A stretch of 64,000 bases of DNA from an uncultured Actinomycetota bacterium (GTDB lineage: Bacteria > Actinomycetota > Actinomycetes > Propionibacteriales > Nocardioidaceae): positions 2,516 to 66,515 of the forward strand of contig CAVQCB010000017.1 of NCBI GenBank assembly GCA_963710895.1. Reading direction: 5' to 3'. How positions within the stretch are numbered: the stretch's first letter is position 1; the number at the start of each line of letters is the position of its first letter. Shown in pieces: positions 61,795 through 64,000 of the stretch. The notes beneath the pieces were generated by a model. That model saw nothing but the letters and a program-made list of their open reading frames with translations, had not been told where the DNA came from and made no database searches. The translations under genes were made by a program, and so were the position numbers.

Positions 61795-62427
61795 TCAGTC
61801 GCAGTAGTCGCACACCCCGGACGCCGGCACCTGGGTGAAGCAGCGGGGGCACAGAGGGACGGGCTTGGGCTCCGGGGCGGGCGCCGCGGCGGTGCTGGAA
61901 GCCTTGCGAGGGGCCTTCTTGCGCGGCGTCGTGCCGCGTGCGGCGGGCCTGCTCGCCCCGGCCTTGCGGACCGGCTTGAAGTGGGCGGTGCGAAGCGGAG
62001 TGCCGCCGTCGCGGGGCAGGCCGGTGGCCTCCCAGTGGCGGTAGCAGCTGAGCCGCTCCGCTGCCGCGTGCTCGTCGGGGTCGGTGGGGCGGTCGCCACG
62101 GGCGTGCTCGACGGCGTCGGCGTACCCCTCACCCACGCTGCCCTGCACGCTGACGCACAACGCGGAGAGCAGTGGCTCGCCACGGGACTGGCACTCATCG
62201 GCCACGCGTGCGAGCACGCCGCCGACCCACGTGGTCACCGGGCGGCTCGTGGTGATCCCGGTGTTCTCCTGCACGGCGGTGGCCAGCTCCTTCCAGCGCA
62301 CCACCGCGCGGTAGCGGCCGGCCGCCTGGAGCAGGACGGGACGGGCTGCCTCGGCCCAGGCGGTGGCGGCGACGGACGAGCCGACCTGTGCGGCATCACG
62401 TGGTTCGGGGGCGGGATCGAGACTCAC
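61795..62427 (-). CDS. Hypothetical protein with wHTH-like N-domain and C-terminal Zn ribbon
   Basis: PLLSALCV; CPRC...CDYC. Confidence 0.7.
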   Translation of the reverse strand: MSLDPAPEPRDAAQVGSSVAATAWAEAARPVLLQAAGRYRAVVRWKELATAVQENTGITTSRPVTTWVGGVLARVADECQSRGEPLLSALCVSVQGSVGEGYADAVEHARGDRPTDPDEHAAAERLSCYRHWEATGLPRDGGTPLRTAHFKPVRKAGASRPAARGTTPRKKAPRKASSTAAAPAPEPKPVPLCPRCFTQVPASGVCDYCD

Positions 62428-62523
62428 AGCCACATGTCTACTCGACCCTCCCTGCTGCCTCACGGGCGGCCCCGGGCCCCGTGACCACCTGTCCCAGGTG
62501 CACGACGTCCGGCCGGTGGCGGC

Positions 62524-63039
62524 TCAGTCTGCGACCGGGACGACGACCTCGTTGCGGCGCAGGAACCACGGCGTCCACGGCGGGTCGAAGCGCGCGTACC
62601 GAGGAGCGCCGACCACCGTCAGGCCCGCGGTCTCCACGGCGGCGAGCAGCTGGGTCGCGCGCCTCTGGTAGGTGCGGCGCGACCAGCGTCCCGAGAACCG
62701 CAGCGCAGCCGCGGTCTCGGCCGGCACCCTACGGGTCCGCACGGCGGAGTCGTTCGGGTCCGGAAGGTCCTCGGCGCTGACGTCGCTCGGCATCACGAAG
62801 CCCACCACGAAGCGCCGGCCCTCGGGAGCCTGCTGCTGCAGGACCGGGGCCGTCATGGCCACCGTGCGCGAGGCTCGGTTGTGCCCACCGATGTAGCGGG
62901 CGAGCTTGGGGAAGGCCAGGTTCCCGGCCAGCTCGAAGGTGCCGCCGACCTCGATCTCCGCGACGAGGTGGTCGGGATAGCGGCGCAGCTCGAACTCGGG
63001 GTACTCCGCGAGCACCTCGTAGGTCTGCTCCTCGGTCAC
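62524..63039 (-). CDS. SOUL heme-binding family protein
   Basis: ELRRYP, AFPKLARYIGGHN, VAMTAPV, ARFDPPW, RNEV. Confidence 0.9.
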   Translation of the reverse strand: MTEEQTYEVLAEYPEFELRRYPDHLVAEIEVGGTFELAGNLAFPKLARYIGGHNRASRTVAMTAPVLQQQAPEGRRFVVGFVMPSDVSAEDLPDPNDSAVRTRRVPAETAAALRFSGRWSRRTYQRRATQLLAAVETAGLTVVGAPRYARFDPPWTPWFLRRNEVVVPVAD

Positions 63040-63090
63040 CTGGACATCCCCGCCATCCCCGCCATCCCCGCCCGCCCCGTCCTCATGTGC

Positions 63091-63882
63091 TCACCCGGCC
63101 AGCGTCCCGCCGAAGACCTGCCAGGCCAGGGCCGACTTGGCGGTCAGGCTCAACACGATGTAGACCCTCTCGCCGAACAGGTAGTCCCTCCAGCGTCCCT
63201 TGGCCCGGTACTGCAGCCACTGGTTGAGGGCGAAGACGTTGAAGAAGACGAACAACGACACGAAGATCCCGTAGACGAAACCGGGAGGTGTGGCCGAGGA
63301 CGTCGAGCCGGGCGAGAGGAGGTAGACGGTGATGGCCAGCCAGGGCACGATGCCGGCGACACAGCCGAAGACGAAGGGGAGCCAGCCGCCGGCACCCGGG
63401 CGCTCGTAGTGCTCCTGCAGCCAGCCGAACAGGATCATGGCGGCGTTCACACCGAACAGGGCCACCAGGGCCGCGACGTCGAAGATGCCGACCAGCTGGG
63501 CGATCAGGACGATCATCAGCGACGAGGAGAGCGAGTACTCGACCCAGCGCGCGGGGTTGCGTCGACGGCCCAGGTCGGCGACGTAGCGCCGCCACCACGC
63601 CGTGCAGACGAGGAGGTGCGCCAGTGCGGAGAGCGCCAGGAACCCCGCGACCGCGGCCCCGGTGGGGACGTCGACGAGGGTCACCGGCTCCTGCGGCGGC
63701 GTGCCCGGCGGCCCGGCCAGGTAGCTCGCGGTCACCGGCAGGGCGAAGTCGGTGGCGAGCAGCAGCACTGCGACGGCCTGGACCGCGTGCAGCGCGGCCG
63801 CGACCGCGTTGGCCCGGCGCAGCGAGGAGGCTGGAGGCGCATCGGTCTCGTTCACCGTCGACCCCACGTCATCCGACTCCAT
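63091..63882 (-). CDS. heR: Heliorhodopsin
   Basis: 7 TM; TM1 His (LHAVQA), TM2 His (ALAHL), RWVEYSLSS counterion helix, LSLTAK Schiff-base Lys. Confidence 0.93.
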   Translation of the reverse strand: MESDDVGSTVNETDAPPASSLRRANAVAAALHAVQAVAVLLLATDFALPVTASYLAGPPGTPPQEPVTLVDVPTGAAVAGFLALSALAHLLVCTAWWRRYVADLGRRRNPARWVEYSLSSSLMIVLIAQLVGIFDVAALVALFGVNAAMILFGWLQEHYERPGAGGWLPFVFGCVAGIVPWLAITVYLLSPGSTSSATPPGFVYGIFVSLFVFFNVFALNQWLQYRAKGRWRDYLFGERVYIVLSLTAKSALAWQVFGGTLAG

Positions 63883-63883
63883 G

Positions 63884-64000
63884 TCACGCGCTGCTGACGG
63901 GGTCGTGGGCGGCCAGGCGCCCGAGCTCTCGAAGCCCTGCGGTCAGCAGGTCGGCCACCGTGCCTGGCGGTACGCCGAGCAGGTCGGCCGCCTCTCGGTG
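63884..64000 (-). CDS. C-terminal sigma-70 region 4-like HTH (probable ECF sigma factor; 5' outside window)
   Basis: My translation: HREAADLLGVPPGTVADLLTAGLRELGRLAAHDPVSSA*; stop lies 1 nt before the HeR ATG. Confidence 0.6.
   Translation of the reverse strand, partial: HREAADLLGVPPGTVADLLTAGLRELGRLAAHDPVSSA

Follow-up and report, generated by a model that had tools for sequence, protein, structure and literature searches.

A heliorhodopsin gene in a probable B12 light-switch cassette with sigma-like and SOUL genes in Nocardioidaceae

Heliorhodopsin function is still an open question in the field, and one end of the 64-kb window (the whole stretch of DNA analysed, 64,000 nucleotides) raises it anew: what does a heliorhodopsin (HeR) do when its gene directly follows that of a sigma-like protein? 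Three genes lie here on the minus strand. The 3' end of the sigma-like gene (63884..64000; 38 codons and the stop) encodes sigma region 4.2, and its TGA (63884-63886) is separated by 1 nt from the ATG (63880-63882) of the HeR gene (63091..63882, 263 aa); a further 51 nt lie between the HeR stop and the start of a SOUL/HBP-family gene (62524..63039, 171 aa), the last of the putative operon. An initial annotation had described this arrangement correctly, and had proposed that HeR takes the place of an anti-sigma factor and may make transcription light-responsive, with SOUL dealing with photosensitising tetrapyrroles. The window holds 38 residues of the sigma-like protein; the remainder was read from the contig beyond the window end, where the full gene (165 aa, minus strand) extends to an extrapolated position 64381 (L001 6400-6897; G000:C17:66399-66896). 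At least 19 further loci, found in several genera and in many metagenome-assembled genomes (MAGs) from soil, share this gene order but not the flanking genes, so the arrangement is not a product of chance. SOUL orthologues (74-82% identical) come after HeR in 14 related loci. The three genes are probably co-transcribed. Rfam found no riboswitch in the cassette; its only matches were a spurious lncRNA and, at the contig end, a partial tRNA.

Beyond the window end, divergent from the sigma-like gene, lies a gene for a CarH/LitR-type MerR-B12 protein of 299 aa (plus strand; 64506-65405 extrapolated, L001 7022-7921). Its MerR_1, B12-binding_2 and B12-binding domains all score above the Pfam cut-offs, and the best NCBIfam model is CarH, at 141.6 bits, under the equivalog cut-off of 400. 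The protein is 36% identical to CarH from Thermus thermophilus (TtCarH) and shares with it the Wx9EH motif and the His ligand (W144-x9-E154-H155 and H191 here, W131/E141/H142 and H177 in TtCarH), although TtCarH His132 is replaced by Ala. A PduO-type adenosyltransferase, to make AdoCbl, is encoded in the genome.

The sigma-like and carH genes are separated by a control region of 124 bp (64382-64505 extrapolated, L001 6898-7021). The spacer carries two pairs of CarH-type 11-bp repeats in opposite, head-to-head orientation: ACCTTGTGCAA and ACCCTATACAT (64458-64479 extrapolated) face the sigma-like gene, and AGTCTGTACAG and ACCATGTACAC (64492-64513 extrapolated) face carH and include its ATG. Published CarH operators contain 3-4 repeats each, of consensus nAnnTnnACAn; that of T. 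thermophilus consists of three such 11-bp direct repeats (PMC8156234). Run on the Thermus carH control, our script returned three perfect repeats (15/15 positions); each of the repeats here fits the consensus at 4/5 positions. The likeness is seen on comparing Thermus AAGCTTGACAA and AACCTATACAT with ACCTTGTGCAA and ACCCTATACAT; Thermus DR2-DR3 closely resemble the repeat units here, which overlap a -35-like TTGxxA element. The two systems differ in the arrangement of the units, in two opposed pairs rather than 3-4 tandem repeats, and in their target genes.

A single two-repeat match was rejected as evidence by itself, since it occurs genome-wide at chance frequency (8 found, 7.9 expected); the argument for a CarH operator rests instead on pairing, position and conservation. 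Nowhere else in the genome do two such pairs occur together. The spacer length of ~125 bp is kept across 31 loci with unrelated flanks, and the conserved parts of the spacer are the repeats, most conserved of all, and putative -35 and -10 blocks. A promoter/terminator scan with a simple sigma-70 consensus found nothing in the region. This is expected for an actinomycete genome of 72% G+C, so that the promoter hexamers, including a putative shared -35, TTGTGCAA, within the 124-bp region, were placed from conservation. The putative operon promoter is of the type TTGTGC-17-CAGAGT, and the predicted carH transcript is near-leaderless. The repeats are probably a CarH operator lying over a shared promoter region.

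We propose, with a probability of roughly 0.7, that the locus is a four-gene LitR/LitS-type B12 light-switch cassette, in which the sigma-like protein is the constant output and HeR and SOUL are an optional pair of light-induced cargo. In the dark, B12-loaded CarH would occupy the two pairs of repeats, which overlap the putative back-to-back promoters and the carH start, and keep both directions off; UV-to-green light would photolyse the cofactor and release CarH, and the three genes would be expressed together. The sigma-like protein, as the constant partner, would presumably relay the switch, and HeR would be a second, retinal-based light sensor with a scavenged chromophore. The operon is thus very probably light-responsive at the level of transcription, as had been suggested, but the light input is most simply the B12 photoreceptor: CarH/LitR is encoded divergently, its putative operator repeats cover the promoter region common to both directions, and the switch can do without HeR. 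Given that the whole operon falls under the predicted CarH/LitR operator, HeR is probably light-induced cargo here rather than the anti-sigma factor of the sigma-like protein.

A comparable system is known from Streptomyces, where the divergent litR and litS genes share bidirectional promoters that LitR-AdoB12 represses in the dark, and light induces litS (PMC11519972); a litR/litS-type layout is also found on a plasmid of S. atratus, beside crt genes. The cassette here likewise has a MerR-B12 gene and a small sigma-family gene diverging from a short shared control region, a regulator with AdoCbl motifs, and no linked anti-sigma gene, and control in both would therefore be transcriptional. There are several differences. 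The Streptomyces spacer has no comparable 11-bp repeats, neither the Sigma70_r2 signature nor the GTVKSR-type recognition helix of a genuine LitS-type sigma is present in the partner here, and the crt carotenoid genes that are the known output of LitR-LitS are missing from this genome, HeR and SOUL being carried instead on the predicted sigma-like transcript.

The division into constant and optional parts follows from the related loci. The divergent pair of CarH and sigma-like genes is kept in 29 of 30. In one genome (G173), no CarH gene lies next to the sigma-like gene. HeR follows the sigma-like gene in 19 of the 30 and is absent from the other 11; by content, 14 modules carry both HeR and SOUL, 11 carry neither, and three carry HeR only. 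No HeR gene is present anywhere in six of the nine distinct genomes whose only module is HeR-less. The distribution of HeR on the sigma-like tree requires 3-4 gains or losses.

The sigma-like protein itself was classified from its full sequence. It matches Sigma70_r4_2 (E 8.9e-09, 35.3 bits; cut-off 25.7) and Sigma70_r4 (E 8.7e-08, 32 bits; cut-off 24.1), whereas Sigma70_r2 was found neither in it nor in any of >120 homologues among the matches listed. An AF2 model (pLDDT 81) contains 3+3 helices; Foldseek matched it to ECF sigmas and PhyR sigma-like structures only, and aligned the N-terminal three-helix domain with sigma-2 of CnrH, SigW and SigK. Region 2.1-2.2 is recognisably ECF-like in distant family members, and region 2.3 is ~10 aa shorter than in real ECFs. 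The recognition helix is GTVADLLTAGLREL, compared with GTVKSHARRGLHRL in the LitS-type sigma from the S. atratus plasmid; helix 4.2 reads GTVADLLTAGL, where the LitS-type sigma has GTVKSHARRGL and a sigma from S. viridifaciens GTVKTRIRDGL. The basic residues of this helix that contact the -35 element (GTV-K/R-S/T-R) are absent, and the loss is family-wide: across 145 representative clusters (E <= 1e-10), 'VAxLLxxGLxEL' replaces 'GTVKSR' and region 2.3 is shortened. Alignment to the LitS-type sigma by hhalign gave a probability of 81%; the match was confined to region 4, region 2 being out of register. The family members are all small stand-alone proteins (140-200 aa), and no Rosetta-stone fusion to HeR or to a receiver was found among 150 representatives. 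Two cysteines, C43 and C121, are invariant in the close family.

The claim that the upstream ORF encodes a sigma factor therefore survives in part. The ORF is sigma-like, with a sigma-4 domain and, as modelled, an ECF/PhyR-type fold; the region 2 signature is missing and the basic -35 residues are lost, and the protein may not function as a sigma factor. Nor is it orthologous to LitS. It would be either an unorthodox sigma like LitS or a mimic like the sigma-like domain of PhyR. These searches bring to light a sizeable family of actinobacterial proteins, derived from ECF sigmas, in which the 'recognition' helix is non-basic and for which a B12 light switch is the best-conserved context.

The second of these options has a specific form, which is compatible with the CarH switch and which we regard as a possible but minority reading: a stand-alone, PhyR-like decoy, synthesized only in the light, would titrate an anti-sigma or another sigma-binding partner. 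The best PDB profile match is indeed PhyR 9cb6 (E 2e-5), aligning 'VPPeTaADfidtALrEm' with 'VPPGTVADLLTAGLREL' of the sigma-like protein; the PhyR sigma-like domain 2lfw was also matched, and the Pfam PhyR_sigma-like model PF22233 gives sub-threshold or occasional matches in family members. The PhyR domain, an anti-anti-sigma by mimicry in Alphaproteobacteria, resembles the protein here in its two-domain ECF-like fold and its degenerate, non-basic region 4.2 helix, and the helix 4.2 pattern fits RT-PhyR. The family-wide loss of the GTVKSR motif, the shortened region 2.3 and the lack of Sigma70_r2 matches are consistent with this reading. However, the protein here is actinobacterial and stands alone, with no receiver domain and no NepR-like or other partner gene in the cassette, and its control would be by synthesis rather than by phosphorylation. 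The genome contains no close real sigma paralogue that it could mimic, Foldseek matches to real ECF sigmas are as good as those to PhyR, region 2.1-2.2 has stayed ECF-like in distant members, and divergent sigmas with unusual promoters exist.

The HeR protein matches PF18761 (E 7e-105, 350 bits) and the NCBIfam HeR model NF038020 (350.6 bits; cut-off 100), and is ~59% identical to HeR 48C12 (6SU3; E 1e-94). The key residues are all present, as the initial annotation had stated: H32, H89, E115, S245 and K249 align to H23, H80, E107, S237 and K241 of 48C12. E107 and K241 are the counterion and the Schiff-base lysine of 48C12, and correspond to E115 and K249 here. The annotation was also right that the 64-kb window contains no retinal synthesis genes, and the wider search extends this: phytoene synthase is absent from the whole genome, which is 99.9% complete, and from all six of the cassette genomes examined, so retinal must be scavenged. 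A search for the Blh beta-carotene dioxygenase (PF15461) gave no match but was uninformative, as control genomes were equally silent. The genome does encode an RPE65-family oxygenase (contig C13:260655-262076), a candidate for retinal formation.

The SOUL protein matches PF04832 (E 4.5e-42, 144 bits; cut-off 27) and PDB structures of p22HBP/HEBP1 (E 5e-9), and has no evident signal peptide. It would be a cytosolic protein of the tetrapyrrole-binding type, plausibly with a role in photoprotection or as the operon partner of HeR; the suggested handling of photosensitising tetrapyrroles is likewise plausible. HeRs are reported to regulate the products of operon neighbours, glutamine synthetase and the ABC transporter OmrDE, and a 'MerR family regulator' is among the ten frequent neighbours of HeR genes (PMC9529153, PMC11109279). 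Here too an actinobacterial HeR gene shares a predicted operon with genes for soluble proteins, next to a gene of the MerR family. Our literature search found no paper that treats heliorhodopsin and CarH together; the single paper with both heliorhodopsin and SOUL was a review on another subject, optogenetics in brain injury. Nowhere in the literature searched has the MerR neighbour been interpreted as a B12 photoreceptor that controls expression of HeR, nor have the sigma-like and SOUL partners been described.

That precedent suggests another reading, in which SOUL is the functional partner of HeR and the sigma-like gene is a mere relay: HeR would modulate ligand binding by SOUL, or SOUL would supply or buffer a hydrophobic ligand. 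HeR and SOUL are gained or lost jointly in most modules, and in the family sample of 201 genomes, 12 of the 13 that bear SOUL also carry HeR, compared with a base rate of 59/201; the genomes are related and not independent, however, so this co-occurrence is overstated. The lack of phytoene synthase in all six cassette genomes examined, which leaves retinal to be scavenged, also favours this reading. Against it, most SOUL genes in the family sample are not adjacent to HeR, and SOUL is fragmentary in several MAG loci, whether from decay or from long-read errors. We consider such a partnership rather unlikely.

On the cassette reading that we prefer, one photoreceptor (B12-CarH) appears to set when another (retinal-HeR) is made, which is a concrete and testable setting. 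HeR would be made alongside a tetrapyrrole-binding-type protein in genomes unable to make carotenoids or retinal; this points to a role in photoprotection or light stress, with SOUL and the sigma-like protein as candidate HeR partners.

A more elaborate proposal combines the decoy with HeR, and we hold it to be improbable. The sigma-like protein would be a stand-alone decoy whose amount, rather than its phosphorylation, is set by light through CarH and which docks on an unlinked anti-sigma or, where the genome has the cassette, on the cytoplasmic face of HeR; B12-sensed light, acting on synthesis, and retinal-sensed light, acting on release or capture, would form a two-photoreceptor gate on a stress regulon. 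If true, it would establish a partner switch of a new kind and give heliorhodopsins their first transcription-linked output.

The original idea, in which the sigma encoded upstream has HeR as its cognate membrane anti-sigma and is freed by illumination to drive a retinal- and light-dependent regulon, is very unlikely. Its best precedent is the carQRS operon of Myxococcus xanthus, which encodes the ECF sigma CarQ, its six-helix membrane anti-sigma CarR and CarS, with protoporphyrin IX and singlet oxygen as input (PMC8156234). There, as predicted here, a light-induced operon begins with a sigma-family gene that is translationally coupled to the gene for a multi-pass membrane protein, and a tetrapyrrole theme is common to both. 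The tight coupling of TGA and ATG across 1 nt, the 4-nt overlap of the two genes in one locus (L032), the absence of any separate anti-sigma gene from the cassette and the published regulation by HeRs of products of their own operons all favour the idea. So does the fact that five of the eight residues that set cassette HeRs apart map to the first cytoplasmic loop or next to it, although phylogenetic signal within a tight clade may explain this. CarQ, however, is a canonical ECF sigma and is always accompanied by CarR, a DUF1109 anti-sigma, whereas HeR, a retinal protein with seven helices and no relation to CarR, is often missing from the module, and the sigma-like protein lacks the hallmarks of DNA recognition. 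The only Pfam match in HeR is Heliorhodopsin (residues 21-261), with no ASD/ZAS or DUF1109 anti-sigma domain found by Pfam, and the tail of ~20 residues before the rhodopsin domain is short and poorly conserved. The spacing of the sigma-like and HeR genes is not conserved either. An obligate partnership is contradicted by the distribution of the genes: besides the 11 of 30 modules and the six genomes without HeR, of the 59 genomes in the family sample that bear HeR, 53 have no sigma-like gene and only six have the cassette. What comes next in the HeR-less modules is a gene on the opposite strand, an ABC transporter or a GNAT, and no membrane protein or anti-sigma stands in the position of HeR.

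Adjacency without regulatory meaning, with CarH controlling itself or unlinked genes and the sigma-like, HeR and SOUL genes as constitutive neighbours, would agree with the empty sigma-70 scan, but is highly improbable given that gene order, spacer and repeat blocks are kept in 31 loci with unrelated flanks and that the only strong CarH-type repeat pairs of the genome fall in this spacer. For high-GC actinomycetes, the compact unit of CarH, operator and promoter could be put to use as a part for light-inducible expression. The flanks vary from locus to locus, and one cassette adjoins a TrwC relaxase gene.

The sigma-like, heliorhodopsin (HeR), and SOUL genes at the end of the window lie on the minus strand in the close arrangement first reported for them, and their domains were confirmed by Pfam and NCBIfam. 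The sigma-like gene crosses the window end, and its TGA (63884-63886) lies 1 nt before the HeR ATG; HeR (63091-63882; Pfam Heliorhodopsin, E 7e-105; 350 bits in the NCBIfam HeR model, whose cut-off is 100) is separated by an intergenic gap of 51 nt from SOUL (62524-63039; Pfam E 4.5e-42). The key HeR residues are also in place: H32, H89, E115, S245, and K249 align with H23, H80, E107, S237, and K241 of HeR 48C12 (alignment E 1e-94), in which E107 is the counterion and K241 the Schiff-base lysine. A 222-aa ORF (61795-62463, minus strand) starts 60 nt 3' of SOUL and carries a Lys/Pro/Ala-rich linker and a C-terminal, zinc-ribbon-like CPRC...CDYC end; it gave no Pfam or NCBIfam match, lacks a counterpart in other cassettes, and could be either cotranscribed with the operon or transcribed apart from it.

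The remainder of the contig was retrieved as locus L001 (adding 57484 to an L001 position gives its window coordinate; the window spans C17:2516-66515 in a 3.7-Mb genome of 19 contigs, 99.9% complete). The full sigma-like ORF encodes 165 aa, with Sigma70_r4_2 and r4 matches at residues 106-153 and no Pfam match for region 2. Divergent from it, 124 bp away, is a gene for a 299-aa CarH/LitR-type protein with MerR_1, B12-binding_2, and B12-binding domains. Its best NCBIfam model is CarH (141 bits, under the equivalog cut-off). With CarH of Thermus thermophilus it shares 36% identity, the Wx9EH motif (W144, equivalent to W131 of the Thermus protein), and the His that ligates cobalt (H191, equivalent to H177). 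The genome also encodes a PduO-type adenosyltransferase.

The spacer between the two genes was searched with a script that scores tandem 11-bp units against the CarH repeat, nAnnTnnACAn (PMC8156234); it recovered the Thermus operator perfectly (GAGATGTACAA, AAGCTTGACAA, AACCTATACAT; 15/15). The same script found one repeat pair toward the sigma-like gene (ACCTTGTGCAA, ACCCTATACAT) and another toward carH (AGTCTGTACAG, ACCATGTACAC), with the carH ATG inside the last unit. A position matrix derived from these repeats found only the two spacer sites in the whole genome. A noncircular pattern count gave single two-unit matches about as often as chance predicts (8, against 7.9 expected), and this spacer was the only place in the genome where two repeat pairs lay within 60 bp of each other on opposite strands. 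In an alignment of 31 spacers the conserved elements were the 11-bp repeats and a TTGTGC-17 nt-CAGAGT block, with TTGCAC-16 nt-TAGTCT on the opposite strand; these are putative promoter hexamers, placed by conservation, and a scan for E. coli-type promoters found none. The layout is that of the Streptomyces litR/litS switch, in which LitR-AdoB12 keeps two bidirectional promoters repressed in the dark and light induces litS (PMC11519972). We consider it probable (about 0.7) that the operon is controlled by CarH, and we class the whole as a variation on the LitR/LitS-type switch, with a degenerate sigma-like protein, HeR, and SOUL. Within the library searched, no paper joined "heliorhodopsin" with "CarH", and heliorhodopsin and SOUL were mentioned together in just one, a review on optogenetics for brain injury that is unrelated to this subject. 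A look-up for prior knowledge by the sequence of the sigma-like protein gave nothing.

The initial annotation called the upstream ORF sigma-like, and the sigma-like fold and region 4 hold. That the protein works as an ECF sigma factor is doubtful: it lacks the basic helix, gave no region 2 match, and has a short region 2.3. The AlphaFold2 model (50-sequence alignment; pLDDT 81, pTM 0.71) has three helices at residues 23-89 and three more at 102-159. All Foldseek matches in the PDB were ECF sigma factors, mostly in anti-sigma complexes, or PhyR sigma-like domains, at a weak E of ~3e-3, while a profile search of PDB sequences placed a PhyR (9cb6) first (E 2e-5), whose helix 4.2 has a pattern strikingly similar to the one here (VPPeTaADfidtALrEm in 9cb6, VPPGTVADLLTAGLREL here). 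A genuine sigma of the LitS type, encoded on an S. atratus plasmid divergently from litR and next to crt genes that include lycopene cyclase, shows both a Sigma70_r2 match (E 3.6e-20) and the helix GTVKSHARRGL, whereas the basic helix is replaced by VAxLLxxGLxEL in sigma-like members down to 27% identity, and no region 2 match was found among the 120 listed of 254 word-index homologues. Region 2.3 of the family is ~10 residues shorter than in real ECF sigma factors; region 2.1-2.2 is still ECF-like. At E ≤ 1e-30 an exhaustive search gave 51 representative clusters, and relaxing the limit to E ≤ 1e-10 gave 145; every one consists of small stand-alone proteins. A PhyR-like sigma mimic is thus a live alternative, and opinion between it and a true sigma factor is roughly evenly split. 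Two cysteines are invariant in the close family (A1 alignment): C43, on helix 1 of the sigma-2-like domain, and C121, within the sigma-4 domain. They could form a redox-sensitive interdomain link. Distant paralogues in a 7.7-Mb actinomycete (L069 5761-6318, minus strand, and L070; E ~1e-18) have the same nonbasic helix (GEVARLLATGLREL); the genes that come next encode GAF-ANTAR regulators, and neither CarH nor HeR follows.

The proposal that HeR is the anti-sigma of this protein is very improbable. On the comparative evidence HeR is not an obligate anti-sigma: modules occur without HeR, HeR occurs without the sigma-like gene, and the rhodopsin is its sole domain, with a variable 20-residue N-terminal tail. 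HeR was found in 58 of 200 family genomes plus the source genome; a close sigma-like gene was present in 7 genomes of this sample and adjoined HeR in 6. Genome G173 of the sample has an intact close sigma-like gene (L119 4070-4543, plus strand) with no carH within 4 kb and HeR on another contig, the sole exception to CarH pairing in the sample. A species-genome scan gave 30 loci with a sigma-like member of at least 52% identity, mostly Danish soil MAGs, the named ones being Marmoricola, Nocardioides, and Nocardioidaceae. CarH was divergent upstream in 29; HeR followed in 19, with SOUL in 14 of those, and 11 had neither. The next gene in these 11 was on the opposite strand, an ABC transporter, or a GNAT gene, never an anti-sigma or membrane sensor. 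Nine distinct genomes, gauged for completeness by their size (3.4-4.4 Mb, normal), carry HeR-less modules only, and six lack HeR anywhere. HeR presence changes three to four times on the sigma-like tree, HeR-less modules being nested among HeR-bearing ones, and the spacing between the two genes varies, the extremes being a 4-nt overlap and a gap of tens of nucleotides. Five of eight residues specific to cassette HeRs fall at the first cytoplasmic loop, which is weak evidence of interaction because the clade is tight.

Under CarH control, CarH-AdoCbl bound to the 2+2 repeats would block both promoters in the dark, and light would remove it, switching on the sigma-like, HeR, and SOUL genes as one unit. 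No other site in the genome has these repeats, and therefore any wider light response would have to pass through the sigma-like protein, which in HeR-less genomes is the sole output of the switch. With scavenged retinal, HeR may add a second, longer-wavelength sensor, and might modulate an operon partner by analogy with published HeRs, which do so (PMC9529153, PMC11109279). SOUL plausibly buffers photosensitising porphyrins.

A search for crt genes, as initially suggested, found no phytoene synthase in the six cassette genomes covered, each with a completeness of 99% or more; carotenoids, the usual LitR/CarH output, would therefore be absent, and HeR would have to scavenge retinal. The source genome has one RPE65-family carotenoid/stilbene oxygenase (C13:260655-262076, plus strand; E 1e-111), a candidate retinal maker from scavenged carotenoids. 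Cassette HeRs group together on the HeR tree, and the nearest noncassette HeRs adjoin apparent TerC-type membrane proteins and small HTH proteins (translations judged by eye); in a published survey, TerC family proteins are likewise named as common neighbours of HeR, as are "MerR family regulators", to which the survey gives no further interpretation (PMC11109279). Of 201 family genomes, 13 carry SOUL, and 12 of these also have HeR (base rate, 59/201), a co-occurrence that is only suggestive because related genomes are not independent; most of these SOUL genes adjoin neither HeR nor CarH, and most are far from HeR.

The cassette behaves like a mobile unit. Flanking genes vary between loci, and one copy (L034/L035) adjoins TrwC/AAA_30 relaxase genes. 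At the contig end, ~120 bp past carH (L001 8040-8076), Rfam gives a weak partial match to a tRNA, truncated where the contig stops; ARAGORN found no tRNA in this region. Together, the relaxase-adjacent copy and partial tRNA hint that the cassette travels on mobile DNA. Many loci come from long-read MAGs, in which apparent HeR, SOUL, or CarH frameshifts may be sequencing errors. One MAG, MFD10113.bin.2.121, has three CarH/sigma-like modules (L082, L086, L088) on a single 2.9-Mb contig; two continue into HeR-SOUL, one of these with apparent frameshifts, and the third is followed by an ABC transporter.
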